From assembly GCF_003966335.1 (NCBI RefSeq), contig NZ_CP034549.1, forward strand, positions 2,550,001 to 2,582,000: a DNA stretch of 32,000 bases, written 5' to 3'. Each line of letters opens with the position of its first letter. Position 1 is the first letter of the stretch. Below the pieces are notes generated by a model. That model had not been told where the DNA came from. It saw only the letters and a program-made list of their open reading frames with translations, and did not search any database. Below are positions 15,671 to 32,000 of the stretch, in pieces. Origin of the DNA: Nonlabens ponticola. Its GTDB lineage: Bacteria; Bacteroidota; Bacteroidia; Flavobacteriales; Flavobacteriaceae. The position numbers and the translations under genes are program-made.

Positions 15671-16921
15671 CTAGGCTTTCTTTAAAACATTAAAATCTAT
15701 ATTAAAAACCTGATCTACAGCTTCCTTCTTTTCATCATTATCAACTTGGTAATAAGTGTTCAAGGTTTTCATATCTAAATGACCAGTTATTTTACTGATA
15801 AGTTTATCACTCTTCCCTTCTCTTTTCATCATGGTAATAAAAGTTCGTCGCGCAGTATGAGAACTAACCCGTTGCCAAAACCTCATTGCCTTCCTGGTGA
15901 CAGTTTTTCCACTTACAGAGACTTTTTCAACTTTCTGTGTAAACCCAGCGTCAAGAAATACTGTCTTGATATATTCATTATGATTCTGATTTGCTACGAG
16001 TGGTAAATTATAATCATACTTTTTTAGAATAAACCTAGCGATTTTACTTAATGGAATTTCACGTACTTTTTTTTCTGAGCCTTTTTCTTCTTTCAGATAA
16101 AGAGTATCATCTGACACGCTACTCTTCGAAATAAATTTCAATTCTCCGAATCGACATCCCGTGACGCATGAAAATATAAATACATCTCTCACACGTTCTA
16201 AAGACTTGCTTTTACACTTGGAATGTAGCAGTTGTTCAATATCCTTCTTAGTAAGTGCTATCTGGTTCGTTATGACTTGTTTTTTTCTTTTGAAAGCTTT
16301 AAACTCATCATTATAGGTTATTCTATTCTTGTAAGCCCAGAGCATGAAGGTCTTAAAAAGTCCTAGATTCCTAGAAAACGTATTATTAATGTGTCCTTTA
16401 TCTGACAAGCAATAATCAGTGAATTCTGACATAAAAGTCGAATTTATGTTATTGAAGTTCAGCTTGTAATTTCGTTTCGCCTGAAAATCTAATAACAAAG
16501 TTTTCATGTAACCATATCGTTTGATTGTAGAATCTGACCAATCCTTATTTTTGGTTTTTTCTGAAATAAATCTGTCATAAGCATTAAAAAAGTCATTGCT
16601 CCCCTTAATTGTTTTTTTGAACTTGAGATCTAGAGCGTCTTTAAGAACACTGGAATTAAATTGAATGTGCATAAGCTTTGATGCGGTCAACGACTCATGA
16701 AAACATTCGGAGTAGCGACCAAGTTGTGTACGTATGGATCTAACTCCTGGAGTTTTGCTGTTGAGAATTGGGGATTTGCTTTTCTGGTCCCAATCCTTAG
16801 GGTGAATCACTTCTCCAGTTGAATAAACAAATTTCTTCTGCTCTTCCTTAAAGGAACAAGAAAATAAAATCAGCGTTTCTTTATTTGACTTAGGTTTCTT
16901 GAGATAAAAGGTATGCGTCAT
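15671..16921 (-). CDS. tyrosine recombinase / site-specific integrase (Bacteroidota type, canonical catalytic residues)
   Basis: Box I FSCVTGCRFGELKFI (Arg present), HTARRTFIT (HxxR), GHLDMKTLNTYYQV (His plus nucleophilic Tyr). N-terminal MTHTFYLKKPKSNKETLILF is the arm-binding-type start typical of Bacteroides integrases. Confidence 0.9.
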   Translation of the reverse strand: MTHTFYLKKPKSNKETLILFSCSFKEEQKKFVYSTGEVIHPKDWDQKSKSPILNSKTPGVRSIRTQLGRYSECFHESLTASKLMHIQFNSSVLKDALDLKFKKTIKGSNDFFNAYDRFISEKTKNKDWSDSTIKRYGYMKTLLLDFQAKRNYKLNFNNINSTFMSEFTDYCLSDKGHINNTFSRNLGLFKTFMLWAYKNRITYNDEFKAFKRKKQVITNQIALTKKDIEQLLHSKCKSKSLERVRDVFIFSCVTGCRFGELKFISKSSVSDDTLYLKEEKGSEKKVREIPLSKIARFILKKYDYNLPLVANQNHNEYIKTVFLDAGFTQKVEKVSVSGKTVTRKAMRFWQRVSSHTARRTFITMMKREGKSDKLISKITGHLDMKTLNTYYQVDNDEKKEAVDQVFNIDFNVLKKA

Positions 16922-17327: not shown

Positions 17328-18548
17328 ATGATTAAAACTTATTTCTACCTCAAAGCAGACAAGCAAAACAGTAAAGGTGAATCAGCTATATACGCTAAAA
17401 TGAAGTTGCGTAAAAAAACCTCAACACTAAGCACTGGGAAGTATATTGATAAAGCCCGTTGGGAAGCTACTAACAAACTTAAAAATACCTTACGTGTAAC
17501 CCGTGAGAAAAACTGTCAAACAACTTTAAAACTACTAGAATCTAAAATTGAATCGATTTATCTAGAATTGGTAAAGGTGGATGCAGATGTTACTCTAACC
17601 GATATAAAGAATCAGTTAAAGGGGAAACAGTCCAAAACCTATGACCTAGATGTCTTAGAACTTTTCCAGAAGCATAACGATTATTTTAAACGTAAATACG
17701 AAGCTGGTGAACGAACAAAGGCTTCTTTGCAGAAGTATAATAGGGCAAAAGACCTTATATCAAACTTCATATATGAAAAATACAGGAAAAAGCGATACAA
17801 TGTCACCGACATTGACAGTGCATTTATTTATGAACTAGACGATTTTTTGAGACACGAATCGGTTTTCCAAAGTGTTACAGGCATCAGTCATAATTCAGTT
17901 GTGAAATATTTTCAATGCTTTAAAACCATGTGTAAATACGGCATCAAAAGAAACATCATCGACCGAAATCCCTTTATTGTTTACGACGAAAAACTTATTA
18001 TAAGAGATGCTGTTTTCCTGACGCAGGATGAGCTAAAACGAATAGAAGATAAAACGTTTAGCACTGAACGTCTTAATCGAGTAAAGGATATATTTCTTTT
18101 TTCTTGTTATACCAGTTATGCACCTATTGACGTTGATAATTTAACCATAAAGAACCTCATTAAGGATAACCAAGGTACATTATGGATTAAGACAAATAGA
18201 GCTAAAACAGCGATAAAATCTAATGTACCCGTTTTACCACCAGTAAAACGGATTCTTGACAAATATTCTCATCTCGAAGGTGAGAAACTACTACCATCAA
18301 TAAGCAATCAGAAGATTAATGAGTATTTAAAGGAAATAGCCGTATTGTGCAAAATAGATAAGAAACTTACTCATTATGTTGCTAGACATACCTTTGCTAC
18401 AACCGTAACTTTGGGTAATGGTGTAGCCATTGAAAACGTTTCTTCAATGATGGGGCATTCAAAAATCACTATGACACAACACTATGCAAAGGTTCTTGAT
18501 AGTAGTGTGAAAAATGATATGGAGAAGCTAAAATTAAAGCTTGCATAG
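17328..18548 (+). CDS. tyrosine recombinase / integrase, apparently without canonical Arg I (IntDOT-like)
   Basis: HYVARHTFATT (HxxR) and MMGHSKITMTQHYAKV (His plus Tyr) are present. Where integrase A has TGCRFGEL, this protein has TSYAPIDV, so Ala replaces the box I Arg in my alignment. Confidence 0.85.
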   Translation: MIKTYFYLKADKQNSKGESAIYAKMKLRKKTSTLSTGKYIDKARWEATNKLKNTLRVTREKNCQTTLKLLESKIESIYLELVKVDADVTLTDIKNQLKGKQSKTYDLDVLELFQKHNDYFKRKYEAGERTKASLQKYNRAKDLISNFIYEKYRKKRYNVTDIDSAFIYELDDFLRHESVFQSVTGISHNSVVKYFQCFKTMCKYGIKRNIIDRNPFIVYDEKLIIRDAVFLTQDELKRIEDKTFSTERLNRVKDIFLFSCYTSYAPIDVDNLTIKNLIKDNQGTLWIKTNRAKTAIKSNVPVLPPVKRILDKYSHLEGEKLLPSISNQKINEYLKEIAVLCKIDKKLTHYVARHTFATTVTLGNGVAIENVSSMMGHSKITMTQHYAKVLDSSVKNDMEKLKLKLA

Positions 18549-18585
18549 TTTTTTATCTTTATAGACTTGAACATTCTTAGATTTT

Positions 18586-19575
18586 ATGAAGGAAGTAAGA
18601 AAATTATCAGAAATAAACGCAGTCTTAGAAGAGACTATAAAATTGGAAATCACGTATAACGCTTCAATTCAAAATTTTACGTATAACGACTATTGGGTAA
18701 ACGAGATTCAGCGCTCATATTTTGATAATAGAATTGCAAAACTTGATAAAAAAATAGACAAAGTAATTGACCTTAATGAAAAAGGACATATCGCATATAT
18801 ACAAGGAGTTAATCAAACCATTAAAACCAAATTGGTAGAACTGTACGAGCTAAAATTAGATGACCTAAAAGACATAGATTATCAAAAACAAGGCTGGGAT
18901 GTTTACTTGACTTATCCGCAAAATCCACCGAAAAATAGTAGCATAGAATTATGGGAACAAATACCTGAATCAGGTTCAGATGACCGACAAGAGTATATTT
19001 TACAGATAGTCGGTTCTTTTTACAATTTCGGTTATGATGCCGTTAATAGCATGAGCCAGAGTAACATGAACGACTTGCTTCTTGACAAATATGATTTACA
19101 GCAGATGGATTTACAACTTTCTTATGCAAAAGCACATTTAGTATTTATATTAAAATTACATGGTCAAATACTAAAATCACTTCACCAAAAATTTCAGGAT
19201 ATCCTAAACCTATTTAATAAGTTGTCAAAATTTGAAAATGGTGATTTTACTTTAGGTAACGAAATCAAGAAAAAACAAGGGAAACTGTATTACAAAGGAG
19301 CAAAATATGAACTCGCCTTTTTGTTTAATTTCTTGTATGATTTTGGGTACATAACAGGAAGTACTAGAAGAAGTGATTCAAAAACATATATCAAACATTT
19401 TTTAGACGAAAGCGAAACTTATTTTTTTAAAGGTCAAGAACCTACAAAAATTCTTGCTATTGAAAAAGAGTTCGGGAGAATAGGTAATGGTGAAGGACAC
19501 GTTGGTAAGGAAATTAAGTTTATAGAAAAATTAATTGATAAACTATATGAACGTTTAGAAAAGCTCAAAGGTTAA
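18586..19575 (+). CDS. hypothetical protein (329 aa)
   Basis: Long ORF 37 nt after the integrase. No catalytic motif. The C-terminal segment resembles that of the 364-aa protein in the left arm. Confidence 0.6.
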   Translation: MKEVRKLSEINAVLEETIKLEITYNASIQNFTYNDYWVNEIQRSYFDNRIAKLDKKIDKVIDLNEKGHIAYIQGVNQTIKTKLVELYELKLDDLKDIDYQKQGWDVYLTYPQNPPKNSSIELWEQIPESGSDDRQEYILQIVGSFYNFGYDAVNSMSQSNMNDLLLDKYDLQQMDLQLSYAKAHLVFILKLHGQILKSLHQKFQDILNLFNKLSKFENGDFTLGNEIKKKQGKLYYKGAKYELAFLFNFLYDFGYITGSTRRSDSKTYIKHFLDESETYFFKGQEPTKILAIEKEFGRIGNGEGHVGKEIKFIEKLIDKLYERLEKLKG

Positions 19576-19582
19576 TCGAATC

Positions 19583-19616
19583 TAGGGAATGTTAGGGACA
19601 ACCTAGCTATACCTAG
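19583..19616 (+). promoter_or_regulatory. 34-nt dyad element, copy 2 (TAGGGAAT-GT-TAGGGACA-A-CCTAGCTATACCT)
   Basis: Shares TAGGGAAT and an exact 13-mer CCTAGCTATACCT (19602-19614) with 17274-17286. Lies 47 nt upstream of the ATG at 19662. Confidence 0.55.
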
Positions 19617-19661
19617 TTTAAACCAGAATATTTGCATCATAACAATTAATAAAAATATATT

Positions 19662-19955
19662 ATGATGACAGAAGAATCAAAAATTTCAATTATTCCATTT
19701 GGAGAGCTAAGAAAGCTCTTCTTACCGCTTCACGACAAGTTGTCCCAACTTGAAACCAAACTTGATAAGACAAGCTCTAATCAAGTAAAAAAGTACTATC
19801 GTAATAAAGATTTGAAGTTACTGTTTGGTATATCTCAAAATACCATTATCAAGTATAGAAACAATGGCAATATACCATTCACTACGATTGGTGATGTTTA
19901 CCTATATCCTGTTGAGGAAATTGATAAAGTCTTATCTAAAAATTGGGTTGAGTAA
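19662..19955 (+). CDS. excisionase-like helix-turn-helix protein (97 aa)
   Basis: YYRNKDLKLLFGISQNTIIKYRNNGNIPFTTIGDVYLYPVEEIDKVL has the same HTH-plus-wing pattern as the 14166-14471 protein. Confidence 0.6.
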   Translation: MMTEESKISIIPFGELRKLFLPLHDKLSQLETKLDKTSSNQVKKYYRNKDLKLLFGISQNTIIKYRNNGNIPFTTIGDVYLYPVEEIDKVLSKNWVE

Positions 19956-21400
19956 TGTCATTAAAATTCTTTTTACCGCAAAGATTACTAGAACGATTAC
20001 ACGATAGGCTAAACGATATTCAACCTAGCAGAAATCAAATTAATTCGTTGGATGAAGACTTGAAACCATTAAACTATAAAATAGAAAAATTCTATTGGTT
20101 ATTGGCGATACTATTTGACCCAAAAGGAAACGGCCTTAAAGAAGTGATGATTAAAGGTTTTACATTTGTGCCTCTATCATCAGAATATTTAACTAATATT
20201 ATTGGAAATGACTACGCATTTTATATTAGATATTTACAAAATCAAGGTTTTATTTTAAGTGATAATACTTACTTACGTGGTAAATGTAAATATTATCATT
20301 TATACAGTTCGTATATAAATTACAATAGTAAGAATATATCCTATTGTTATATAGATGAGGTTAACAACATTAGTGAAACTCCTATAAACATTAGAGTTAT
20401 AGGTGATAGTAAAAAGGGGAAAGAAAGTAATTGTATTGAAGTTACTATTACTCCAAATTCTAGTTTGTACGAAAGCAAAAAAAAGAAGTATGACTTACAA
20501 ACTGATAGGAAAAAGAAGTTAGCAAAACATGTTAAAAACGATATGTGGAAGCATTATACAAAAACAATGGTTCTCGATATTGAGCAAGCAGAAAAATATT
20601 GTTTTGATTTTCAAAGAAATTGCACCGAAATATTAGAAAATAAATATCGAGAAGGTAGGATTGACCGTGATAAACTTATAAATGCAAAAGCAATACTTCA
20701 AAACAAATACCTAAACAGGATTTCGTCTGTAAGTAATTTGAAGAACCCAAAAAAAGACAAATCGTGGTTGTACAGTAGGAAAGGTAAGAGCAGAAGGTTG
20801 AATACAAATCTGACGATGATGGCAAGTGACCTAAGACCTTTCATAATTGGCTATGAAAATATGTCATATTTAGACCTTTCTAACTCCCAACCTGTACTTT
20901 TTAACGTAACGCTTCAATCATTAAAAGAAACGGCATCAGGTAGTCTGAAAATGGAAATTGACAGGTACTTTCAAATTACTATAGAAGGTAGATGGTATGA
21001 AGAATTATGTGACATTTTTAAATGCAATAGAAAAACAGCAAAACAGTATTGGATGCTTATAGCTTACTCAAAAAATAACGAATGTCGACGCCTTAAAAAT
21101 AAGTTTAGAAACAGTTTTCCAGAAGTATATTCAATTATAGAACAACAGAAAAAAGATAATTACACAAAATTTTCCATCGGCTTACAAAAAATCGAAAGCC
21201 AAATTTTTATCGATGTCATTTGCAAACGATTAGTGGAAAATGACATTCTACCATTATCCATTCACGATGGAGTATTAGTGGATAGAAATTATACAGAAAA
21301 AACGTATAAGATAATGACCGATGCTTTATGTGAATACATTGGAGCTATTCCAGTTATTGATATAAACGGTGTAAAACGTTACCCTAAAATTGCAGGTTAA
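19955..21400 (+). CDS. 481-aa protein with family-A DNA polymerase-like motifs A, B and C in its C-terminal 190 aa
   Basis: LRPFIIG...YLDLSNSQPVLF against PolI RRAFIA...ADYSQIELR. NRKTAKQYWMLIAYS is in register with RRSAKAINFGLIYG. GLQKIESQIFIDVICKRL...LSIHDGVLV against MQGTAADIIKRAM...QVHDELVFE. The start overlaps the upstream stop by 1 nt. Confidence 0.5.
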   Translation: MSLKFFLPQRLLERLHDRLNDIQPSRNQINSLDEDLKPLNYKIEKFYWLLAILFDPKGNGLKEVMIKGFTFVPLSSEYLTNIIGNDYAFYIRYLQNQGFILSDNTYLRGKCKYYHLYSSYINYNSKNISYCYIDEVNNISETPINIRVIGDSKKGKESNCIEVTITPNSSLYESKKKKYDLQTDRKKKLAKHVKNDMWKHYTKTMVLDIEQAEKYCFDFQRNCTEILENKYREGRIDRDKLINAKAILQNKYLNRISSVSNLKNPKKDKSWLYSRKGKSRRLNTNLTMMASDLRPFIIGYENMSYLDLSNSQPVLFNVTLQSLKETASGSLKMEIDRYFQITIEGRWYEELCDIFKCNRKTAKQYWMLIAYSKNNECRRLKNKFRNSFPEVYSIIEQQKKDNYTKFSIGLQKIESQIFIDVICKRLVENDILPLSIHDGVLVDRNYTEKTYKIMTDALCEYIGAIPVIDINGVKRYPKIAG

Positions 21401-21481
21401 TAATATTACAATCTAAAATTTTAGTATTCATTTATTTTTCTCTTAGATGTTGAATAGTTAAAACGGAGATATTAATATTAA

Positions 21482-21503
21482 AAAAGGTATCATAATACCT
21501 TTT
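21482..21503. terminator. weak AT-rich hairpin downstream of the 481-aa gene
   Basis: AAAAGGTAT, loop CATA, ATACCTTTT. A 9-bp stem with only two G-C pairs, flanked by A-run and T-run, so usable in either direction. Confidence 0.35.
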
Positions 21504-21843
21504 GCAGGTCGAGTTTACCCGTACGCTAAATGACCGAAAAAAATTATTTGGAACATAGAGGGCGTGCAATTGGAACATTTAAGTAACAAATAGTAAGAAG
21601 GGTGATGACTGGAGACTGTTTTAATTTAAACCGCTAGCCTCATTGGAGAGCTCAAACACTCCACCTCGAATAGTAAGGGTAATTGGATATTCCTCTTGAG
21701 GTAGTGACACTCCATCACTAATTAGTAATCAGAATAGTCTGCTACCTCATTATAGTTTACGCTTAAATAATTTTCGAGTTGCTCCTTGAGCAAAGGCATA
21801 AATTGTATGGTGGTTTCGTTTACTTCTTACTTAATCTGTAGGT

Positions 21844-22047
21844 TTAGTTATTATAGTTTCTTTTTGGTGCAAAGTCCTTAACTATACAATTGTGAATCTT
21901 CCATTTCCCGTTTGATTTTGATAATAAGGACGGTTGGTTCTTATATTTTTTTTTCAGTTCAAGTAATCTGTACCTGACGGTTCTCTCGCTTATATTAAAG
22001 AACTCCATTATCTCAGTACTGGTGTAATAGGTTTTAGATTTTATCAT
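21844..22047 (-). CDS. small helix-turn-helix DNA-binding protein (67 aa)
   Basis: YYTSTEIMEFFNISERTVRYRLLELKKKY is a typical AlpA/Xis-type HTH. It is the only minus-strand gene in the right arm and is divergent from the XRE gene. Confidence 0.55.
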   Translation of the reverse strand: MIKSKTYYTSTEIMEFFNISERTVRYRLLELKKKYKNQPSLLSKSNGKWKIHNCIVKDFAPKRNYNN

Positions 22048-22131
22048 ATTTTGAATGCTTTATGATAAATAGTAGGCACCTGCATAAAACACAAACTAAT
22101 TATTCTTTTTTTAAGATACTTTTTAAAACAA

Positions 22132-22144
22132 CTCATTTAATGAG
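22132..22144. promoter_or_regulatory. 13-bp palindrome CTCATT-T-AATGAG, candidate operator between the divergent HTH genes
   Basis: Exact dyad 40 nt upstream of the ATG at 22185. Confidence 0.35.
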
Positions 22145-22184
22145 ATATACCTTCTATTTTTATTCCATATAAATCCCCCATTAT

Positions 22185-22373
22185 ATGAATCGTATTAAAC
22201 TCGTACTCCAAGAAAAAGGAGTTATACAAACATGGTTAGCTATCAAGCTGGATAAGAGCTATAATATGGTGAATAGTTATGTAGCTAACAGAAGACAGCC
22301 CAGCGTTGAGGTTTTGTATAAAATCGCTGATTTGTTAGACGTTAGTGTAAAAGATTTATTAACTGACAACTAA
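22185..22373 (+). CDS. XRE/Cro-C1-type HTH regulator (62 aa), possible controller protein of the downstream operon
   Basis: IKLVLQEKGVIQTWLAIKLDKSYNMVNSYVANRRQPSVEVLYKIADLLDVSVKDLL is a canonical HTH_3 pattern. Ends 6 nt before the SNF2 gene. Confidence 0.8.
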   Translation: MNRIKLVLQEKGVIQTWLAIKLDKSYNMVNSYVANRRQPSVEVLYKIADLLDVSVKDLLTDN

Positions 22374-22379
22374 TATTAA

Positions 22380-25300
22380 ATGCAACTAATCAATAATCAG
22401 GACTCCTTATTACTGGATGTTCTTAAGAGCAAAATTAACGCTCAATCCAATATTTCCATAAGCTGTAACTATTTTACCTCATTTGCTTTATTTGAGCTGA
22501 TTGATGTTCTCAAAAGTGCATCTAAAGTTGAGGTCTTGTTGGACTTTCAACCAGAGAAGGAAGAGGAATTCAAGTTTATTCAAAGCGATTCAGAGAAAAA
22601 ATTGAACCTGAAACTAGATAGAAAGAACCGAATTACTCAGGTTCTAAAACTCCTTGCAGATAAGATTCAGATACGTAAAGGTGGTACTGGAAACCAAAAC
22701 CTTGTAATCGTTGAAAACGAAAATATATCGACTTGTTATTTACTAACTCCTTTGAATTTGGATTCTGTAAGCCTAGGCGTATTACCCTCAGAGCTACCTG
22801 TATTCATAAATTCTTTTGACGACCCTAACAACCAGTATTTGGGTTTATTCCAAAATTCATGGAACAACAGCAGCTTATCGCTCAATGATACCATAATAGC
22901 AAAACTAGAAAAAGGCACCCGTGATTATACGGGTGAAGAAATCTACAAATACTGCATCCGTGAGATATTTCAATACTCTACCATAAATGAAAGAGCTGAT
23001 GAAAAACTTCAAAAAGTAGGTTTCAAAGATTCTAAAATATGGAGCCTGCTATACAATTTTCAGAAGGATGCTGTAATAGGGGCAATTGAGAAAATTGAAA
23101 CATATGGTGGTTGTATTATAGCAGATTCGGTAGGTCTTGGAAAGACATTTGAAGGACTGGCGGTGATGAAATATTACCAGTTACGAAATGATAGAATATT
23201 AGTTTTAGCCCCTAAAAAACTACGCGAAAACTGGACAGTCTACCAGATGAATGATAAGAGAAATATCCTTGCTCAAGACCGTTTGAACTATGATGTTCTC
23301 AATCACACTGATTTATCCCGTAATAAAGGTAAGTCTGGAGACATAGACCTTGAAATGATTAATTGGGGAAATTATGACTTAGTCGTTATAGATGAATCCC
23401 ACAACTTCAGGAACAACCCTACAAAGAGAGGAATGACAAGGTACAAGCGTTTGATGAATGATGTTATCAAGTCAAATATTAGAACTAAGGTTCTTATGTT
23501 ATCTGCCACGCCTGTCAATAATAAAATGAATGACCTGAAGAATCAAATCGCCTTCATTACAGAAGGTGATGATGAAGCTTTCATGTCCCATGGGATAGAT
23601 AGCATCAGTCAGGTGATGAAGGATTCCCAACGCCGATTTACGCAATGGTTTAGAGATGGTGACCCTGATGACTTGAATGTAAACTCCTTAATGGAAAGTC
23701 TTGATGGGGCTTATTTTAGAATTCTGGATATGCTCACCATCGCAAGGTCTAGAAAGCATATTGAAAAATATTATGACACCACTAATATTGGGAAGTTCCC
23801 TAACAGACTTAAACCTGATACGGTTCATCCTGAGATAGATACTCACGGAAAATTCAAAAATATTGGACAAGTGTACGATGAGATTAGTACGCTTACACTT
23901 GCCTCTTATACACCTCTCGGATATGTTAGAGCAGACAAGCGTGACTATTATGAACAGAAGTATGATATGCAAACGCACACAGGTAGTGTTTTTAAGCAAG
24001 TAGACCGTGAGCAGAGTTTGATATATCTTATGAGAGTAAATCTATTAAAACGTCTAGAAAGCTCTATATACTCCTTTAAATTAACCACAAAAAAGCTTAT
24101 TGAATTAGTAGACAGCAATCTTAAACAGCTTAGAGAACATCAAAATGGTGAAGTGGACTACGACCTCAACATTACTGATATAGATTTAGATGACACAGAA
24201 CTGGATGACCTTCTTATAGGCGGTAAAACTAAAGTGCTAATTCAAGATATTGATACGATACGCTGGAGACAGGACTTAGAACATGATAAACATATTCTGA
24301 CTCAATTATTGGGTAGCATCAAGCTTATAGATGTGGAACGTGATGCAAAGCTCAAAGAATTGAAAGACCGCTTATCTATAAAAATTGATAATCAACCGTA
24401 CAATACGGGTAACAAAAAAGCTATCATTTTTACAGCGTTTGCTGACACAGCAAATTACTTGTATGATGAACTTAGCGACTGGCTCAAGACAGAAAAAGGA
24501 CTTCATACAGCTTTAGTAACTGGCTCAGGTACGAACAAAACTAATATGCCAAAGTGTAGAAGTGACTTGAGTTCTATCCTAACTAACTTTTCCCCTCGTT
24601 CAAAGAACAGGAAAGATATTTTTCCTGATGAGAAAAATGAAATTGATATTCTATTTTGTACAGACTGTATTTCAGAAGGTCAAAACCTTCAAGATTGCGA
24701 TTATCTGGTAAACTATGATATACATTGGAATCCAGTACGCATCATTCAACGTTTTGGACGTATCGACCGTATCGGTTCTATTAATGAAAATATACAGTTG
24801 GTGAACTTCTTCCCTTCCATGGAATTAGACCAGTTTATTGATTTGGTAGCTCGTGTACAGGGTCGTATGGTGATGCTTGATGTAAGCGCCACTGGTGAAG
24901 ACAATGTAATAAGCAAATCAAATCGAGAGATGCAGGATTTGGATTATCGCAAGCGACAACTCAAACAATTACAAAACCAAGTGCTAGACCTTGAAGATAT
25001 TGATGGTAATATTTCTATTACCGATATGACCTTCAATGATTTTAAAATTGATTTAGAGAAAAGCTCAGACAGACAGCTTTCCGACCTCAACGACATTCCA
25101 CCTGCTTCTTATGCTGTTGTAAAGTCAAACCTCAACGAGATTAAGGATGGTGTAATATTCTGTTTAAAAGATACCAGTGCTGACTTCAAGGAAAAGCTCA
25201 AGAACAATATTTTGTATCCTTACTTTCTGGTATACCTCAGCATGGATGGTAAGACTATCGTAACAGCGTCGCAGACTAAGAAAGCCTTAGACTACTTCCG

Positions 25301-25550
25301 CAAATTATGTATGGGGCAAAATCAGGTATTACCAGATTTGGTTGCTCAATTTGAAAGGGATATTAGAGGGAATAGAAAGGTTTCCGCTTTCGCGAAAGCG
25401 TTACAAACAGCAATCATTGAGGTATCTGGCATACAAGAGGAATTAGGGCTGGACTCTCTCGCAACTCGCGGTGCGGTCAACTTGATGAGTAAAAGCATCA
25501 ATAAGGAAGACACCCTAGAGTTAATAAGTTATCTAGTCATTAAAGAATGA
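22380..25550 (+). CDS. SNF2-family (SF2) helicase/translocase with an unassigned ~220-aa N-terminal domain
   Basis: Motif I IADSVGLGKT, Ia ILVLAPKKLRENW, II DLVVIDESHNFRN, III MLSATPVNN, V FCTDCISEGQNLQD, VI HWNPVRIIQRFGRIDRIGS. The N-terminal region has a PLD-like layout, but I cannot find an HxK motif (IQIRKGG instead). Confidence 0.85.
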   Translation: MQLINNQDSLLLDVLKSKINAQSNISISCNYFTSFALFELIDVLKSASKVEVLLDFQPEKEEEFKFIQSDSEKKLNLKLDRKNRITQVLKLLADKIQIRKGGTGNQNLVIVENENISTCYLLTPLNLDSVSLGVLPSELPVFINSFDDPNNQYLGLFQNSWNNSSLSLNDTIIAKLEKGTRDYTGEEIYKYCIREIFQYSTINERADEKLQKVGFKDSKIWSLLYNFQKDAVIGAIEKIETYGGCIIADSVGLGKTFEGLAVMKYYQLRNDRILVLAPKKLRENWTVYQMNDKRNILAQDRLNYDVLNHTDLSRNKGKSGDIDLEMINWGNYDLVVIDESHNFRNNPTKRGMTRYKRLMNDVIKSNIRTKVLMLSATPVNNKMNDLKNQIAFITEGDDEAFMSHGIDSISQVMKDSQRRFTQWFRDGDPDDLNVNSLMESLDGAYFRILDMLTIARSRKHIEKYYDTTNIGKFPNRLKPDTVHPEIDTHGKFKNIGQVYDEISTLTLASYTPLGYVRADKRDYYEQKYDMQTHTGSVFKQVDREQSLIYLMRVNLLKRLESSIYSFKLTTKKLIELVDSNLKQLREHQNGEVDYDLNITDIDLDDTELDDLLIGGKTKVLIQDIDTIRWRQDLEHDKHILTQLLGSIKLIDVERDAKLKELKDRLSIKIDNQPYNTGNKKAIIFTAFADTANYLYDELSDWLKTEKGLHTALVTGSGTNKTNMPKCRSDLSSILTNFSPRSKNRKDIFPDEKNEIDILFCTDCISEGQNLQDCDYLVNYDIHWNPVRIIQRFGRIDRIGSINENIQLVNFFPSMELDQFIDLVARVQGRMVMLDVSATGEDNVISKSNREMQDLDYRKRQLKQLQNQVLDLEDIDGNISITDMTFNDFKIDLEKSSDRQLSDLNDIPPASYAVVKSNLNEIKDGVIFCLKDTSADFKEKLKNNILYPYFLVYLSMDGKTIVTASQTKKALDYFRKLCMGQNQVLPDLVAQFERDIRGNRKVSAFAKALQTAIIEVSGIQEELGLDSLATRGAVNLMSKSINKEDTLELISYLVIKE

Positions 25551-26317
25551 GTTACAGGTACAACGACATATTTCAAATTCCCGAACGTAGTCTGGTACAA
25601 CAACGATTGACCAAAGCCTATTTTTTAAGACAGATGGGATTGACTAGCGCTGAAAAGAAGCTAATCAATAACAATATTGAGTCGATGGAAGTCCTTGCGC
25701 AATTGATTCCAGAAAAAAGTAATATACCAGCTGTTGTAAACGACATTGATAGTTTTGAACAAGTGTTGGTGATTATATGTACAGTATCAACAAACGAACT
25801 GGATAAACTTGCTGAAAAGTGTATTCATTTTATACAAAAATACATTTCACATCAGGTCGTATTGATAATAGAAGATGATTTTCATTTTATACTCAATGCA
25901 GCAGATAAGCGCATTAATCAAGCGGACAACTCAAAGCTAACCATTGAACGGTATTTTAATACTAGTAAATTATCAAAGCTGTATAAAAATGAGCATGGTG
26001 AATCATTCTTTGAGGGATTGAATTTTTCAAACCTAGATAAGAAGAATCTAGAATTACTGTACAAAAGCTATATACAAGCCATTGTTCAATATCAAGCTGC
26101 AAGTATAACGGGAACATACCAAAAACGAAGTAACGCTCGTACGGCTCAAGATATGGAGCACCTAGCTCAAATAGAACAGTTAGAGAGAGACATCCTATCA
26201 TTTGCAGGTCAAATAAAAAAAGAATCACAGCTAAACGAGAAAGTGCGATTAAACATGAAAATACAAGAGAAAAGAAATCAAATAAAAGACCTAAAGCATC
26301 TACTGAATGAACATTAG
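25547..26317 (+). CDS. 256-aa hypothetical protein, DUF4391-like by recollection, with C-terminal coiled coil
   Basis: ATGA overlap with the SNF2 stop. Its size and its position between an SNF2-like helicase and a Mod methylase match how I remember DUF4391 genes occurring. C-terminal QIEQLERDILSFAGQIKKESQLNEKVRLNMKIQEKRNQIKDLKHLL is heptad-like. The family assignment is unverified. Confidence 0.5.
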   Translation: MSYRYNDIFQIPERSLVQQRLTKAYFLRQMGLTSAEKKLINNNIESMEVLAQLIPEKSNIPAVVNDIDSFEQVLVIICTVSTNELDKLAEKCIHFIQKYISHQVVLIIEDDFHFILNAADKRINQADNSKLTIERYFNTSKLSKLYKNEHGESFFEGLNFSNLDKKNLELLYKSYIQAIVQYQAASITGTYQKRSNARTAQDMEHLAQIEQLERDILSFAGQIKKESQLNEKVRLNMKIQEKRNQIKDLKHLLNEH

Positions 26318-28064
26318 CAAAGAGAGTCTCATAAAATTATTCAATACTGGAACGAATCAATATGTAATTCCGTTTTTTCAAAGACCTTATGTTTGGAAAA
26401 AAGAGGACTGTGAAAATCTTTATGAGGATTTAGAGAATACGTTAAGAATCAATAAGGAAAAGGTTATCTCTGAGCACCATAAAGAACATTTTATAGGTAC
26501 AATCATTACTAAAAATAGCCCTGCCAGTACACAGATGACCGCTCAATATGATTTGGTCGACGGTCAACAGCGTATGACTACTTTTTCACTGCTAATCAAA
26601 GCTCTAGCAAATAACGTTGATTTGTCCGAAGAAAATGCAGGTCACCTGTATGAAAACCTTAATGGCTCACTATTCTTTAAGGATGCTTACGGTAAAATAC
26701 ACAACAGAATTATCCACAATAGACTAGACAAAAAGGCATTTGATTTGATTATGGGGTCAGATGGAACAACTGATAAAGAAATTAGAGACATTAATAATAA
26801 AATAGTTGACACCTACATTTACTTTAGACAGAAATACAGTGGTCTAACTAATGACGAGCTTTTAGAAAGAAATTTCACCCTTTTACACCGTTTTCCTGCA
26901 ATCAACATGGTACTTGAACAACACGATGATGAGCAGGAGATTTTTGATACCATTAATTCCCTGGGAGTGAAATTAACCACCTCAGAGTTATTGAAGAACC
27001 ACATTTTTAGTGATAAACGGTCTCAAGAATTGTACACTGAATACTGGGAAGATATTTTTGAAGCAGATGAAGAAACTGTGGCATTTTGGAACGCGAAAAA
27101 GACAGCGGGTAGAGTATATCGTGAGAATATTGATGTGCTACTGTATTGCTATTTGCTTATTGAGAAAGAAAAGGATGTTTCTTTAGAGCATTTATTTAAA
27201 GACTATAAAGAATGGCTTTCGACAAAATCCTTTGAAGAAAAACAAGAATTTCTGAAAACTCTAAAAAATTATGCAGATGTTTATTTCAATTTGCCATCGG
27301 GTACTGAGTTAAACAATATGAGATTTAGTGATAATGAAAAACGATTTTTTCACGTCATTGAAAATTTGAATATTACAACTATATACCCTTTAGTACTCTA
27401 TTTATATAACAACATTGAGGATGAGGCAGAACGTGAAAAATGCTTCCTTTTGCTAGAAAGTTACCTCGTTAGAAGGGCAGTTTGTAAGCTAACCACAAAA
27501 AATTATAACAACTTATTTATATCACTAATCAGACAACTAAAGAACGGAGATAGCGAACAAGCTATTTCTACAAGGTTGAACGATATTCTACAAGGATACT
27601 CTGAAGATACGGCTAGATTCCCAAGTGACGAGGATTTTAGAAACGGTTTTCACAATACAAAATTGAGTAACCAACAAGCAAGAGAAATTCTATTTTTAAT
27701 TTCTTTATATCAAATAAATACTGTTTTACATGACTTGACGACATTAAGTTGTAATGCCTTTTCAACCGAACATATTATGCCTAAAAAATGGTCAGAAAAC
27801 TGGTTCAAAGATTTGACCCCTGAAGAAAGTTTTGAAAGAAATAGAAAACTACTCACTTTAGGAAATCTGACCATCATTACCAAAAATCTTAATAGTAAAC
27901 TTCGTAATTCAGCGTGGGAAAACAAACGTAGTATTCTCAACCAGTATTCAAGTTTACCTATAACAACTAATTACACTTCATCTGAGCATTGGGATGAAGA
28001 AACCATATCAAATAGAGCAAATGACCTAACTGATTTAGCTCTTGTAATCTGGAAAAAGCACTAA
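26307..28064 (+). CDS. DUF262 (ParB-like NTPase) plus DUF1524 (His-Me finger) protein, GmrSD-like Type IV modification-dependent restriction enzyme
   Basis: N-terminal YVIPFFQRPYVWKKEDCENLYEDL and DGQQRMTT (DUF262). C-terminal STEHIMPKKW...LGNLTIITKNLNSKLRNSAWENK (DUF1524 HNH-like). Overlaps the upstream gene by 11 nt. Confidence 0.8.
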   Translation: MNISKESLIKLFNTGTNQYVIPFFQRPYVWKKEDCENLYEDLENTLRINKEKVISEHHKEHFIGTIITKNSPASTQMTAQYDLVDGQQRMTTFSLLIKALANNVDLSEENAGHLYENLNGSLFFKDAYGKIHNRIIHNRLDKKAFDLIMGSDGTTDKEIRDINNKIVDTYIYFRQKYSGLTNDELLERNFTLLHRFPAINMVLEQHDDEQEIFDTINSLGVKLTTSELLKNHIFSDKRSQELYTEYWEDIFEADEETVAFWNAKKTAGRVYRENIDVLLYCYLLIEKEKDVSLEHLFKDYKEWLSTKSFEEKQEFLKTLKNYADVYFNLPSGTELNNMRFSDNEKRFFHVIENLNITTIYPLVLYLYNNIEDEAEREKCFLLLESYLVRRAVCKLTTKNYNNLFISLIRQLKNGDSEQAISTRLNDILQGYSEDTARFPSDEDFRNGFHNTKLSNQQAREILFLISLYQINTVLHDLTTLSCNAFSTEHIMPKKWSENWFKDLTPEESFERNRKLLTLGNLTIITKNLNSKLRNSAWENKRSILNQYSSLPITTNYTSSEHWDEETISNRANDLTDLALVIWKKH

Positions 28065-28068
28065 TAAA

Positions 28069-29940
28069 ATGGAGAAAATAACCAAAGACCATAGCCTTTC
28101 TCAAAGCGAGAACCTCGTAGAAAGCAATATAGATAAGTTAAAGGCATTATTTCCAGAGATAGTCACCGAAGGGAAAATTGATTTCAAAGTACTACAAGAA
28201 GTATTAGGAAACGAGCTAGAAGAAGGCGAAGAATATTACCGCTTTACTTGGGCTGGGAAAGCAAACGCAAGAAGAGAAGCCCAGAAACCAAGTACAGGAA
28301 CCTTACGACCAGCACCAGAAGAAAGCGTAGATTGGGACACTACTCAAAACCTTTACATTGAAGGCGATAACCTAGAAGTGCTAAAACTACTACAGAAAGG
28401 ATACGCTGGTAAGGTGAAAATGATTTACATAGACCCACCATATAACACGGGTAAGGACTTTGTGTATAAAGACAATTACAAAGACAACCTACGTAATTAC
28501 CAAGAAGTTACAGGGCAAATAGATGATGAAGGCAACAAACTAAGTACCAACAGCGATAGTGATGGACGTTTCCATTCCAACTGGCTCAATATGATGTATC
28601 CTCGTTTGCGTTTAGCTAGAAATTTACTAAGTGAGTCAGGTCTTTTATTTGTGTCTATTGATGATAATGAAAGCTCTAATCTGAAAAAATTATTGGACGA
28701 GGTTTTTGGTGAAGATAATTTTATAAACCGTATTAGCTGGAGAAGAAGACATAATCAACCAAATGATAAGACGAAAATGGTTGGTATTGTATCTGAAAGT
28801 ATTTTTATTTTCGGTAAAAAAAGCTCTAATCTCAAATATGGAGAAAGTTTTTATGGTTTGCCATTATCTGAAAAAAGAGCTTCAGATTTTACCAATCCAG
28901 ATTCAGACCCAAATGGAAAATGGACTTCTAATCCTTGGAAGGCAGCAGTAGGAAGAGGCGGAAGTTCTTATGTGATAAACACTCCTTCTGGGGAAAAACT
29001 TGATAATACTTGGTATGGTAATGAAGAAACTTTTAAGAAACATTTAGATGATAAAAGAGTTCATTGGACTGATAATGGAAGTGGTTTCCCAAGAATAAAA
29101 ATCTATCTAAAAGAAAAAATGAAAGATGGTCAATTAGCTCATAATTTCTGGGGTCATAAAGAATTTGGGTCTAATCAAGATGCATCAAACGAGTTGTCGG
29201 AACTATTTAGTCTAAAAGGTTTATTTGACAATCCAAAACCAGTTAAACTTTTAACTCAAATTCTATCTATTTCCTCATCTGATGATGATTTAATATTAGA
29301 TTTTTTCTCAGGTTCTGCATCAACAGCTCATTCCATTTTTGAGTCTAATATTTTACATTCTGCTAAAAGACAATTTATCCAAGTTCAGTTGCCTGAAGAA
29401 ATAGACGAAAAAGAACCTGCGTATAAAGCAGGTTATAGAAGGATTTCCGATTTAGGGAAAGAACGCATTCGTAGAGCAGCCAAAAAAATAGCGGAAGAAT
29501 ACCCAGAAAAAGCCAAAGAATTAGACTTAGGCTTTAAAGTTTTTAAACTCGATACCAGTAACATAAAGGGTTGGGATGGTAATCCAGATAACCTAGACGA
29601 TAGTCTTTTTGATGCACAGGATAATATAAAAACAGACCGTACAGAGCACGATGTACTCTATGAGATACTACTTAAATATGGTCTAGACCTTACACTACCT
29701 ATTGAAGAGAAAGAGATAGCAGGTAAAACAGTTTTTAGTGTAGGTTATGGTGCTTTATTTATTTGTCTAGCAGATACCATTACCAGTAAAGTAGCGGAAG
29801 GTATTGGTAAATGGAAGTCAGCATTGCAACCAGAAGTATGTAGAGTTGTTTTTAAAGACTCAGGTTTTACAGATGTTGAGAAAACCAATAGTGTACAGAT
29901 TTTAAAACGTTTTGGTATAACAGAAATAAAAAGTATCTAA
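28069..29940 (+). CDS. mod: Type III restriction-modification Mod subunit (beta-class N6-adenine/N4-cytosine DNA methyltransferase)
   Basis: Motif IV MIYIDPPYNTG precedes motif I LILDFFSGSASTAHS (beta-class order). A variable central region fits a TRD. The Res gene follows after 4 nt. Confidence 0.85.
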   Translation: MEKITKDHSLSQSENLVESNIDKLKALFPEIVTEGKIDFKVLQEVLGNELEEGEEYYRFTWAGKANARREAQKPSTGTLRPAPEESVDWDTTQNLYIEGDNLEVLKLLQKGYAGKVKMIYIDPPYNTGKDFVYKDNYKDNLRNYQEVTGQIDDEGNKLSTNSDSDGRFHSNWLNMMYPRLRLARNLLSESGLLFVSIDDNESSNLKKLLDEVFGEDNFINRISWRRRHNQPNDKTKMVGIVSESIFIFGKKSSNLKYGESFYGLPLSEKRASDFTNPDSDPNGKWTSNPWKAAVGRGGSSYVINTPSGEKLDNTWYGNEETFKKHLDDKRVHWTDNGSGFPRIKIYLKEKMKDGQLAHNFWGHKEFGSNQDASNELSELFSLKGLFDNPKPVKLLTQILSISSSDDDLILDFFSGSASTAHSIFESNILHSAKRQFIQVQLPEEIDEKEPAYKAGYRRISDLGKERIRRAAKKIAEEYPEKAKELDLGFKVFKLDTSNIKGWDGNPDNLDDSLFDAQDNIKTDRTEHDVLYEILLKYGLDLTLPIEEKEIAGKTVFSVGYGALFICLADTITSKVAEGIGKWKSALQPEVCRVVFKDSGFTDVEKTNSVQILKRFGITEIKSI

Positions 29941-29944
29941 GTCT

Positions 29945-32000
29945 ATGAAGATTCAATTTGACAGTAGCTTAGATTACCAAAGAGATGCTATGAAAGCCAT
30001 TACAGGGATATTTCAAGGTCAAGAAATATGTGAGGCTAACTTTACCGTGTACTCACCAGAATTCTTAGCAAAACAGCAAAATATCGCCTTCAATGAGATA
30101 GGATATGGTAACCGTTTAACGCTTACCGAAGGTAATCTAGTAGAGAACGTTCAAAACCTTCAATTAGCAAATGGTTTAAAGCCTAGTGAACGTAGCGAGA
30201 TAGACAGAAACCATTTAGATTTTACCATAGAGATGGAAACAGGTACAGGTAAAACCTATGTGTATTTGCGTTCTATTATGGAGTTATACACCAAATATGG
30301 TTTTTCAAAACATATTATCGTAGTACCATCAATTCCTATCAAAGAAGGTGTGTATAAATCACTTCAAATCACTGAAGACCATTTCAAGCAATTATATGAT
30401 AACCTCAACTACAATTTCTTTATATATGACAGTAGTAAACTGAATGAAGTGCGAGACTTTTCTACCAATGATGGTTTATCCATTATGGTCATTAACATTG
30501 ATGCGTTTCGCAAAAGCTTTGAAAATCCAGAAGATGCTAAAAAGAAGGCAAACATCATTCATCGTTATAACGATAAGTTAGGATACAAGCCTTTAGACCT
30601 CATCAAAAACACAAATCCAGTAGTGTTTATCGATGAACCTCAAAGTACAATGAGTACACCACTGGCTAAAAAGGCTGTGCAAGGTTTAAATCCGTTGGCT
30701 ATTCTTCGTTATTCAGCGACACATAAAGAGAAGGTGAATTTAATGTACAAGCTGGATGCAGTAGATGCCTATGACAAAAAGCTGGTAAAGCAAATAGAAG
30801 TAGGTTCTATACAGACTGAAGGTATGAATAATCAAGCGTACATACGTTTATTAGAAGTTCGCTCAAGGCGAAATACAATAGAAGCTCGTGTTGAGGTAGA
30901 TGTAATGCAAGGTGGAAGCATTCAACGAGTCAAAAAATGGGTAAAGCAAAACCAAGACCTAGAAGAACTTACAGGACGTATTGAATATGAAGGCTACATC
31001 ATCAAAGATATTTACGTAGCCGATGAATACATCGATTTTACAAGTCGTGATGGAGAATTAAAGGTTGGTGAAGCTATTGGTAGTGTAGATGATAAACAAA
31101 TTAAGACCGCTTTGATAAGTAAAACAATCGAAGCACATTTGGATAAGGAATTAGTGCTCAATCCGCAAGGAATAAAGGTGCTCAGTTTATTCTTTATTGA
31201 TTCCGTAGGTAAATATCGAGTGTATGATGAAGAAGGAAATGCCTCTCTAGGGGAATACGCAGAAATTTTTGAAAAGGAATACCAAAAGCTCATCAAGAAA
31301 ACCAAGTATGCAAGCCTGTTTGGAGAAATGAAAGATGTTGAAGTAGATGCTTCAGAAGTTCACAATGGTTATTTTTCTATTGATAAGAAAAGTAAAGCGA
31401 GTAACAAAAAAGAGAAGTTTGAATACTTCAAGGATACCACTGGTAAAGTGAATGCAGATGAGTATACCTATAATCTTATTATGCGTGATAAGGAAAAGTT
31501 ACTGAGTTTTGATTCTAAGTTGCGTTTTATCTTTTCGCACTCAGCATTAAAAGAAGGATGGGATAATCCTAATGTGTTCCAGATATGTACGTTGAAGGAT
31601 GCTGGTAATTCAGACATTAGAAGAAGACAGGAAATTGGTCGAGGTTTACGATTATGCGTAAACCAAGATGGAGAACGTGTATATGGCTTTGAAACCAATA
31701 CATTAACCGTAATGGCTACAGAATCTTATGTGGATTTTGTAGATAACCTTCAGAAGGAAATTGAAGCCGATACAGGAATTAAATTCGGAATTCTGGAATC
31801 ACACAGTTTTAATAATGTCGTTATGAGTATCGATGGTGATGAGGTAGAATATTTAGGTCAAGAAAAATCAGAACAACTTTATGACTTCCTCATCCTAAAA
31901 GGATACATCGATATGAGAGGTAAAGTACAAGATTTACTGCGTATTGCTATAAAAGATGATGCAGTAGAACTTCCTGAAGAATTTACTGAAAGTGAACACG
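29945..32000 (+). CDS. res: Type III restriction enzyme Res subunit (SF2 helicase-nuclease), 3-prime end beyond the window
   Basis: Hand translation from the ATG at 29945: MKIQFDSSLDYQRDAMKAITGIFQGQ...LDFTIEMETGTGKTYVYLRSIMELYTKYGFSKHIIVVPSIPIKEGV...PVVFIDEPQS...LRYSATH. This is the characteristic Res N-terminus, Walker A and DEPQ box. The frame appears open through 32000, although the final ~1.2 kb was not translated codon by codon. It is missing from the track because there is no stop in the window. Confidence 0.85.
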   Translation, partial: MKIQFDSSLDYQRDAMKAITGIFQGQEICEANFTVYSPEFLAKQQNIAFNEIGYGNRLTLTEGNLVENVQNLQLANGLKPSERSEIDRNHLDFTIEMETGTGKTYVYLRSIMELYTKYGFSKHIIVVPSIPIKEGVYKSLQITEDHFKQLYDNLNYNFFIYDSSKLNEVRDFSTNDGLSIMVINIDAFRKSFENPEDAKKKANIIHRYNDKLGYKPLDLIKNTNPVVFIDEPQSTMSTPLAKKAVQGLNPLAILRYSATHKEKVNLMYKLDAVDAYDKKLVKQIEVGSIQTEGMNNQAYIRLLEVRSRRNTIEARVEVDVMQGGSIQRVKKWVKQNQDLEELTGRIEYEGYIIKDIYVADEYIDFTSRDGELKVGEAIGSVDDKQIKTALISKTIEAHLDKELVLNPQGIKVLSLFFIDSVGKYRVYDEEGNASLGEYAEIFEKEYQKLIKKTKYASLFGEMKDVEVDASEVHNGYFSIDKKSKASNKKEKFEYFKDTTGKVNADEYTYNLIMRDKEKLLSFDSKLRFIFSHSALKEGWDNPNVFQICTLKDAGNSDIRRRQEIGRGLRLCVNQDGERVYGFETNTLTVMATESYVDFVDNLQKEIEADTGIKFGILESHSFNNVVMSIDGDEVEYLGQEKSEQLYDFLILKGYIDMRGKVQDLLRIAIKDDAVELPEEFTESEH

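Follow-up and report, generated by a model that had tools for sequence, protein, structure and literature searches.

Type III restriction-modification (RM) is seen as a machine that is complete with its two subunits. What, then, do two further genes add when they are kept ahead of mod and res in the same operon? The question is raised by a stretch of 32,000 nucleotides (nt) of Nonlabens ponticola (NCBI RefSeq assembly GCF_003966335.1, contig NZ_CP034549.1, positions 2,550,001 to 2,582,000 of the forward strand), referred to here as the window and numbered from its first letter, in which genes for an SNF2-family ATPase and for a protein of the family DUF4391 precede a Type III Mod methyltransferase and a Type III Res. 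We found that these four genes form a conserved cassette, and on balance we lean towards seeing in it a mobile-element-borne Type III RM system extended by a dependent, co-inherited and translationally coupled SNF2/DUF4391 accessory module that assists restriction. Type III RM itself is known; the conserved, uncharacterized, dependent accessory module is the new part. A preliminary description of the window, made from the sequence alone, had stated that no functional description of the arrangement was known to it, and this holds for the searchable literature, outside which some key subscription papers lie, leaving a prior mention possible. The name DUF4391 appears in that literature only as an entry in an enrichment table and as what seems to be a slip for the family DUF7941.

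The four-gene cassette and its conservation

Six plus-strand open reading frames (ORFs) run in one direction from position 22185 to the end of the window, preceded by a short palindrome.

22134 to 22146, no strand assigned: palindrome CTCATTTAATGAG, read from the sequence, about 40 nt 5' of the start codon of the next gene
22185 to 22373, plus strand: XRE/Cro-type helix-turn-helix (HTH) regulator, 62 amino acids (aa) (Pfam HTH_3 3e-08, HTH_26; PHROG transcriptional regulators)
22380 to 25550, plus strand: SNF2-family ATPase, 1056 aa (Pfam SNF2-rel_dom, Helicase_C, ResIII)
22380 to 22874, plus strand: PLD-nuclease-like N-terminal domain of the SNF2 protein, approximately aa 1-165 (AlphaFold2 model and Foldseek)
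25547 to 26317, plus strand: DUF4391 protein, 256 aa (PF14335 3.3e-46)
26307 to 28064, plus strand: GmrSD-family (DUF262 + DUF1524) Type IV restriction enzyme, 585 aa (GmrSD_N 5e-36, GmrSD_C 2.4e-20)
28069 to 29940, plus strand: Type III Mod methyltransferase, 623 aa (N6_N4_Mtase 1.4e-35; PADLOC MTase_III 2.1e-217)
29945 to 32000 and beyond, plus strand: Type III Res, N-terminal 685 aa, continuing past the window (ResIII 6e-11; PADLOC REase_III 3.5e-227)

The six genes are laid out as in the preliminary description, and the junctions that it gave were all recovered: 6 nt separate the HTH gene from SNF2, SNF2 and DUF4391 share an ATGA (25547-25550), DUF4391 and GmrSD overlap by 11 nt (26307-26317), and gaps of 4 nt precede both Mod and Res. 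Its calls of an XRE HTH, SNF2, DUF4391, GmrSD and the Type III proteins Mod and Res were likewise recovered in profile searches with Pfam, PADLOC and NCBIfam. Between 22185 and 32000 we found no terminator-like site or hairpin on the plus strand. Bacteroidota promoters differ from the sigma-70 pattern; a scan for sigma-70 promoters gave fewer matches than in shuffled sequences, and this consensus is not informative for a Bacteroidota genome.

The six genes had been taken as one fixed unit, and here the comparison with other loci (designated L plus a number) disagreed: the conserved unit is the four genes SNF2-DUF4391-Mod-Res. The GmrSD gene separates DUF4391 from Mod in no loci but the window, L012, L060 and L009 (in L009 as a GmrSD_N gene); it is found 3' of Res in L018 and L056-58 and 5' of SNF2 in L024, and is absent from the other loci. 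The HTH gene is common without being universal. A small HTH gene homologous to that of the window lies directly 5' of SNF2 in 12 Bacteroidota loci, the same position is occupied by non-homologous HTH or ribbon-helix-helix genes in the Lactococcus, Enterococcus and Monoglobus plasmids and in L059, and several loci have no HTH gene.

The cassette itself, with the same gene order and strand, was found at about 55 loci from Bacteroidota, Firmicutes, Proteobacteria, Campylobacterota and a methanogen; where the contigs allow, all loci examined but one have it. The recurrence of the arrangement, stated in the preliminary description, is well borne out. A scan of the genome collection provided 39 loci, mostly from Bacteroidota. 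Beyond these, the cassette is present in Clostridium tarantellae and Aliarcobacter skirrowii, on plasmids of Providencia, the archaeon Methanomethylovorans, Lactococcus lactis, Enterococcus faecium and Acinetobacter, in a distant DUF4391 clade from metagenomes (25-30% identical) and in a 90-kb Erysipelothrix phage-like element. All 27 DUF4391-bearing plasmids carry a Res homolog on the same record, and in the plasmid records whose positions were compared Res lies 2-6.5 kb 3' of DUF4391 on the same strand, with the exception of Enterococcus faecalis LR962462, whose Res gene is on the opposite strand.

The junctions inside the cassette are mostly tight (defined as an overlap or at most 20 nt, with inserted genes counted when the gap exceeds 300 nt). 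The SNF2/DUF4391 junction is tight in 45/47 cases and has inserted genes in 2, the DUF4391/Mod junction is tight in 35/45, commonly with a 4-nt ATGA overlap, and has inserted genes in 7, and the Mod/Res junction is tight in 28/38 and has inserted genes in 9. Pairwise-distance matrices correlate with r=0.93-0.95 among SNF2, DUF4391 and Res, and those of Mod with the others at about 0.6. The lower value for Mod is consistent with exchange of its target recognition domain (TRD). These correlations show a cassette that moves as a unit, not contact between its proteins, and linkage alone contributes to them.

Mod-Res pairs of the same clade also occur without SNF2 and DUF4391. One is found on a Thiodictyon plasmid (Mod-RhuM-Res), whose Res is 53% identical to that of the window and nearer to it than the enterococcal Res that does accompany the pair; others are on Aeromonas plasmids (45% identical), and a plasmid of Lactiplantibacillus (L. 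plantarum) has Mod-Res with only a 53-aa remnant of DUF4391. The reverse situation was seen once, in L043, a metagenome contig resembling Actinomyces in which the SNF2 gene is split and the pair, apparently decaying, has housekeeping genes (suf operon, TGT) around it. Because the pair has no active nuclease, it is most simply read as depending on Mod-Res and not vice versa. A plasmid of Monoglobus pectinilyticus (L054) has another combination, namely HTH, a different SNF2 (862 aa, with no PLD-like N terminus), RhuM, Mod, transposase, Mod and Res; it has no DUF4391, and its alternative SNF2 stands where that of the cassette does, before a Res of the same clade.

These loci bear on the idea that SNF2-DUF4391 is an autonomous two-gene defense system, parked beside a Type III RM system as synergistic cargo, which we consider unlikely. 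Such a pair would by itself detect invading DNA or phage proteins and act on them. Both the solitary Mod-Res pairs and the one locus with SNF2-DUF4391 but no Mod-Res fit it, and so does the pattern of junctions, SNF2/DUF4391 being the tightest and inserts falling often between DUF4391 and Mod. Defense genes commonly nest inside one another, and single SNF2-nuclease proteins like HmaA defend alone (PMC11232893). However, neither protein of the pair supplies an active nuclease, the PLD fold having no His and DUF4391 no conserved catalytic residues, and the sole stand-alone example has a split SNF2 gene. The invariant order and strand relative to Mod-Res across phyla and archaea, together with the frequent ATGA overlap of DUF4391 and mod, would be unexpected for mere co-location, and Res is present, mostly just 3', on every one of the DUF4391 plasmids.

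Besides GmrSD, the cargo found at the DUF4391/Mod and Mod/Res junctions comprises Abi_2, RhuM, SLFN_AlbA_2 with HATPase_c_4, DUF4062, DUF2130, a second Mod and unassigned genes. The archaeal and Aliarcobacter loci have inserts of approximately 245 aa between DUF4391 and Mod that show no homology with one another and match no Pfam domain. The GmrSD protein of the window has the motifs DGQQR (aa 85-89) and EHIMP (aa 488-492) and matches the PADLOC models Orf5 (6e-86), HEC-06 (8.5e-59) and mREase_IV (1e-50). It resembles the Type IV enzymes GmrSD, BrxU and SspE in having a full-length DUF262 with DGQQR and a DUF1524 His-Me finger, and differs from them in lying inside a Type III operon instead of standing alone or beside BREX or Ssp. 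GmrSD-like genes have also been described as embedded in Hma operons (PMC11232893). GmrSD is thus recurrent embedded cargo and not a core subunit, and it plausibly complements the Type III enzyme against hypermodified phage DNA.

The proteins of the cassette

The motor of the SNF2 protein is intact in helicase motifs I, II (DExH), III and VI (GLGKT, aa 252-256; DESH, aa 338-341; SATP, aa 375-378; QRFGRIDRIG, aa 790-799), and it has the split RecA lobes typical of SNF2 (Pfam SNF2-rel_dom 8e-10, Helicase_C 6e-15). Its sequence matches in the PDB are RapA, SMARCA and CHD. The PADLOC model C3a139 ('HKD+Snf2') matches the protein over its full length (1e-120), and in the literature C3a139 figures only in a table, in a survey of the gene neighborhoods of Type III CRISPR loci; the DrmD, BrxH, HmaA and DpdE models match only the ATPase core (DrmD at 5e-37 or below, HmaA 1.3e-26). 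In PHROGs, the protein corresponds to phrog_26785 (3e-247), labeled 'unknown function'.

The N terminus of this protein had been described as having a PLD-like layout with no HxK, and both parts of that description were upheld. With an AlphaFold model of residues 1-256 (built on 25 sequences) that reached a pLDDT (predicted local distance difference test) score of 80.8, Foldseek retrieved SauUSI (8e-06) and NgoAVII R (7e-05), followed by PLD4, BfiI and Tdp1. The motif HxK(x)4D was not found in 35 Bacteroidota orthologs, 24 diverse fragments or 10 phylum-diverse orthologs, including the archaeal one. The protein search with the N-terminal domain gave mostly truncated fragments, which were used for the structure alignment and not for statistics of architecture. 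The strand at the HxK position reads IQIRKGG in the window (aa 96-102), and in the orthologs examined the K/R is kept and the His is never present. Because the catalytic His is missing in every ortholog examined, the PLD fold is predicted to be catalytically dead throughout the family.

DUF4391 was correctly given in the preliminary description as PF14335, which matches residues 9-245 of the 256-aa protein with 158.5 bits against a cutoff of 29.9. The AlphaFold2 model (pLDDT 90.7) has an N-terminal alpha/beta domain and long C-terminal helices at residues 168-254, in line with the coiled coil attributed to the protein from its sequence. Foldseek searches of PDB and of the viral models in BFVD with this model gave no structural relative below E=0.08. 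A PDB profile search pointed at response regulators (E of approximately 1e-3; ComE 4cbv, 256 residues, matching residues 53-135), a kinship too weak to be trusted. The invariant residues are K23, N59, K121, N124 and N236, and the alignment contains no conserved catalytic set of Asp, Glu or His. Because the invariant residues are Lys and Asn, because there is no conserved acidic or His set and because of the coiled coil, the sequence argues for a binding or adaptor role of DUF4391 rather than for catalysis.

A profile search of 1.84 billion representatives gave 2080 clusters of the family (clusters at 50% identity) with E<=1e-3, and 1051 with E<=1e-10. One fusion protein (P0291, 469 aa) has an N-terminal part of 216 aa with no Pfam match. 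PADLOC and NCBIfam have no model that matches the DUF4391 protein, and PHROGs lists it as 'unknown function'. In public records, DUF4391 genes are labeled 'methyl-accepting chemotaxis protein' or 'chemotaxis protein' in Erysipelothrix phi1605 (L061, 78296-79009) and in Vibrio alginolyticus AP026557.1, labels that are probably an artifact of the coiled coil and that hide the cassette from keyword searches.

The Mod protein has the order of the beta class, with DPPY at aa 122-125, a variable TRD and FFSGSAST at aa 412-419, and PADLOC MTase_III covers its full length. Its most variable region is the central stretch of aa 200-400, which is consistent with swapping of specificity. The Res protein has the ATPase motifs of superfamily 2 (SF2), TGTGKT, DEPQ, SAT and GRGLR. 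REase_III aligns to it over model positions 1-661 of 989, and therefore the res gene runs off the end of the window, where the protein stops at residue 685 of about 1005. Full-length orthologs of 996-1055 aa (L012, L004, L045, L048 and L001) have a C-terminal RE_endonuc domain (PF19778, approximately 1e-35).

The four genes evolve at different rates. Between the window and L004, identity is 92% for Res, 84% for SNF2, 67% for Mod and 57% for DUF4391; over L004, L034 and L012, it ranges from 77 to 92% for Res, from 75 to 84% for SNF2 and from 53 to 58% for DUF4391, which is the fastest-evolving core gene. Column entropy in 32 loci is highest in the TRD of Mod, in DUF4391, in the dead-PLD domain and in the last 150 or so residues of SNF2, and lowest in the ATPase cores. 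These fast-evolving noncatalytic parts are candidates for surfaces that meet DNA, partners or phage factors.

The integrative element, the controller and the neighboring defense genes

The cassette is the cargo of an integrative element, the backbone of which lies upstream.

17328 to 21400, plus strand: integrative-element backbone, with an integrase (17328-18548), a 329-aa ORF, an HTH_17 excisionase-like gene (19662-19955) and a 481-aa ORF

Pfam matches in the backbone are Phage_integrase, SAM_5, Arm-DNA-bind_5 and HTH_17. The same series of integrase, 329-aa ORF and HTH_17 gene stands 5' of the cassette in L034 and, with a homolog of the 481-aa ORF, in L009, and parts of the backbone are common to the Algibacter and Winogradskyella loci. 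Between the 481-aa ORF and the HTH gene there is an unusually long gap of about 780 nt (21400-22185), the only contents of which are a 67-aa minus-strand ORF (21844-22047, with a weak DeoR-HTH match of 4e-04) and the palindrome at 22134-22146. No Rfam family was found anywhere in the window. A motif (C/A)TCATTT(A/T)ATGA(G/T) stands at the same place 5' of the HTH gene in L004, L034, L005, L006 and L007, and the left half of the palindrome alone, CTCATTTTATG, recurs in L014, L015 and L017. The palindrome may serve the controller gene as an operator or promoter element, and the 62-aa HTH protein is likely, by analogy with a C protein, to be the transcriptional controller of the operon.

Mobility raises another possibility, which we rate as somewhat less likely even than an autonomous pair, that SNF2-DUF4391 is a safety or regulatory module that modulates Mod versus Res, protects transiently unmethylated host DNA or controls establishment after transfer. 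Nearly always, the cassette sits on a mobile element (integrases, plasmids, the phage-like element), where toxicity on establishment matters, and the position of the pair 5' of mod-res with translational coupling would set the stoichiometry. A dead nuclease domain suggests binding, not cutting. In the lactococcal AbiR, which comprises a restriction-endonuclease-like/Snf2 protein and a methylase, toxicity appears when the methylase is missing (PMC13064643). However, the operon already has a dedicated HTH controller, an ATP-driven motor of 1056 aa whose motifs are fully conserved would be an expensive regulator, and related Mod-Res pairs persist on plasmids with no SNF2-DUF4391. The fast evolution of DUF4391 and of the SNF2 termini also looks more like an arms-race interface than like housekeeping control.

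The element that bears the cassette abuts a second one, which carries a Type IIG enzyme and Gabija. The features of this part of the window are the following.

777 to 2237, minus strand: 486-aa ORF, with weak matches to CARF_PDDEXK (PADLOC 1.2e-06) and NERD (Pfam 0.004)
2258 to 6086, minus strand: complete Gabija system, with GajB at 2258-4276 (1.5e-299; UvrD helicase) and GajA at 4269-6086 (PADLOC 1.7e-238; AAA_15 and OLD-like TOPRIM)
6097 to 6468, same direction as the Type IIG gene: 123-aa ORF
6471 to 8174, same direction as the Type IIG gene: 567-aa ORF, with a weak hint of NERD (E=0.03)
8174 to 11374, minus strand: MmeI-like Type IIG restriction-methylase fusion (PADLOC 2.5e-253)
11553 to 11915: MobC-like gene
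15671 to 16921, minus strand: tyrosine integrase, Bacteroidota type
17328 to 18548, plus strand: tyrosine integrase, Bacteroidota type, of the backbone listed above

The two integrases are divergent and back to back, each heading its own block of cargo, which suggests that two integrative elements were inserted at the same site; the MobC-like gene and the HTH_17 genes belong to integrative backbones. The 567-aa and 123-aa ORFs that follow the Type IIG gene could be accessory genes of that enzyme or another small system, and the 486-aa ORF may be a nuclease-type defense gene at the edge of the island.

Relation to other systems and a proposed mechanism

Classical Type III RM systems (EcoP15I/EcoP1I, Mod2Res) share with the window mod followed by res on one strand, the order DPPY...FxGxG with a central TRD, and a Res with SF2 ATPase motifs and an RE_endonuc C terminus, the latter seen in orthologs. 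They differ in having no SNF2 and DUF4391, both of which precede Mod-Res in the cassette, and the window has in addition an HTH controller and cargo genes embedded in the operon. It is only distantly akin to the enteric enzymes, with 266 bits for NCBIfam PRK15483 against a cutoff of 564. Type III systems hemimethylate an asymmetric site, and their ATP-dependent cleavage requires a pair of unmethylated sites in inverse orientation.

The closest architectural parallel is the layout of the Type-2 BREX-related (BR)/Hma systems, which combine an active HKD and a Swi2/Snf2 helicase with an N6-methyltransferase (N6-MTase), a DUF499 ATPase and a small DUF3780 protein (PMC12839542). Common to both are a helicase protein in which a PLD/HKD fold precedes the SNF2 core, a small uncharacterized alpha+beta protein encoded beside it and a self-marking methyltransferase. 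The effector of BR/Hma, however, is an active HKD (or PD-(D/E)xK), whereas the fold in the window has no His and the nuclease comes from the Type III Res. Pfam and PADLOC found no DUF499 AAA+ ATPase, DUF1156-type N6-MTase or DUF3780 in the operon of the window, and the HmaA match is partial. SauUSI and NgoAVII-CglI, the best structural matches of the N-terminal domain, likewise couple a PLD fold to an SF2 motor, but they cut with the PLD domain, some of them in a modification-dependent manner, and the motor in the window is of the SNF2 type.

Class 1 DISARM is also methylation based and has an SNF2-family ATPase and a PLD-fold element; a preprint assigns its methylase DrmMI to the pfam13659 family and describes the PLD protein DrmC as dispensable (10.1101/2021.12.28.474362). 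The locus might be class 1 DISARM, for which the preliminary description had left room, or a fragment of it, with drmA, drmB and drmC lying past the end of the window. Partial matches of SNF2 to DrmD models (PADLOC 5e-37; NCBIfam 2.5e-42) point that way, and some Bacillus cereus plasmids have DrmA-DUF1998 directly 5' of an orthologous cassette. We nevertheless hold this to be very improbable. The scores of SNF2 are far below the cutoffs of the NCBIfam DrmD equivalogs (145 bits versus 610 for NF038317; 124 versus 950 for NF038318), the PLD fold is fused to SNF2 instead of forming a separate DrmC and is predicted to be dead, the methylase belongs to Type III Mod (N6_N4_Mtase) and not to pfam13659 and has a bona fide Type III Res behind it, and DUF4391 has no counterpart in DISARM. 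Searches by phmmer with B. cereus DrmA and DrmB as queries found neither in the 32-kb window nor in about 45 orthologous loci, including 3-5 kb 3' of Res. Moreover, the DrmAB genes of B. cereus sit 5' of the cassette, where the window has its integrase backbone.

The B. cereus arrangement deserves attention of its own. On about 15 plasmids the order is integrase, AAA ATPase, DrmA, DUF1998, SNF2, DUF4391, Mod and Res; in L050/L053 (NZ_AP022916.1, 23.8-42.4 kb) DrmA and DUF1998 (DrmB) stand directly 5' of the cassette, and an AAA ATPase of 1251 aa and an integrase come before them. The arrangement is a natural hybrid and suggests that the module and a DISARM core can work together, and functional kinship of the module with DISARM is a live lead. 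A bolder reading, possible but in our view doubtful, is that SNF2(dead-PLD)-DUF4391-Mod-Res is a distinct and widespread multi-motor, methylation-based form of immunity, a 'DISARM-like Type III', in which the pair is required as sensor, loader or remodeler and alters the way in which a Type III enzyme locates or destroys foreign DNA. The preliminary description had likewise put forward, as a possibility, a distinct defense type that is helicase assisted and methylation based. If so, the pair could, for instance, relieve the requirement for two inverted sites, remove protective proteins or use the fast-evolving surfaces of DUF4391 and the dead-PLD domain to sense anti-restriction factors, and the module could also take up DrmAB, as in B. 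cereus.

For the accessory module that we favor, we infer a complex, a tethering and a role of translocation from the observed composition and conservation of the cassette. The XRE regulator would autoregulate the operon through the upstream palindrome, delaying or limiting restriction on entry into a new cell. Mod would mark the host DNA, and Mod2Res would recognize unmethylated asymmetric sites, as EcoP15I does, with Res contributing an SF2 ATP switch and a C-terminal PD-(D/E)xK nuclease (encoded past the window). SNF2 and DUF4391 would form a complex, tethered to DNA or to Mod/Res by the dead-PLD domain, the C terminus of SNF2 and the coiled coil of DUF4391. Its ATP-driven translocation would assist restriction of unmodified DNA, possibly by clearing bound proteins, by communication from site to site or by stalling and exposing the invading DNA, in a role analogous to those of DrmD in class 1 DISARM, BrxHII in BREX and HmaA in Hma. 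Cleavage would be left to Res, because the nuclease fold of SNF2 itself is predicted to be dead. GmrSD would act independently from a permissive junction, covering phages with hypermodified DNA that eludes the Type III enzyme.

Several points weigh against an accessory module of this kind. Contact of SNF2/DUF4391 with Mod/Res is something that we infer, and co-divergence with a fixed gene order could arise from simple linkage. Mod-Res of this clade works, or at least persists, when the pair is missing, and the pair is evidently not required for basic RM function. DUF4391 has no recognizable fold relative, and the adaptor role proposed for it from model and alignment is a guess. The sample of loci is biased towards Bacteroidota, having come from a pattern scan of the collection based on a narrower alignment, and of about 2080 PF14335 clusters only a handful were inspected in their context. 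Finally, the window ends inside res, so that the nuclease domain and the end of the operon are seen from orthologs only.

A sizeable sublineage of Type III RM has kept two extra genes attached, and its hosts include enterococcal (clinical) and lactococcal (dairy) plasmids. The cassette is also a clear example of operon junctions that serve as landing sites for other defense genes. Explaining the SNF2-DUF4391 pair would give DUF4391 a function and show what a nuclease-disabled SNF2 motor adds to restriction, and it might reveal a mechanistic link of Type III RM to DISARM, BREX and Hma, in which a methylase is likewise combined with an SNF2-type motor.

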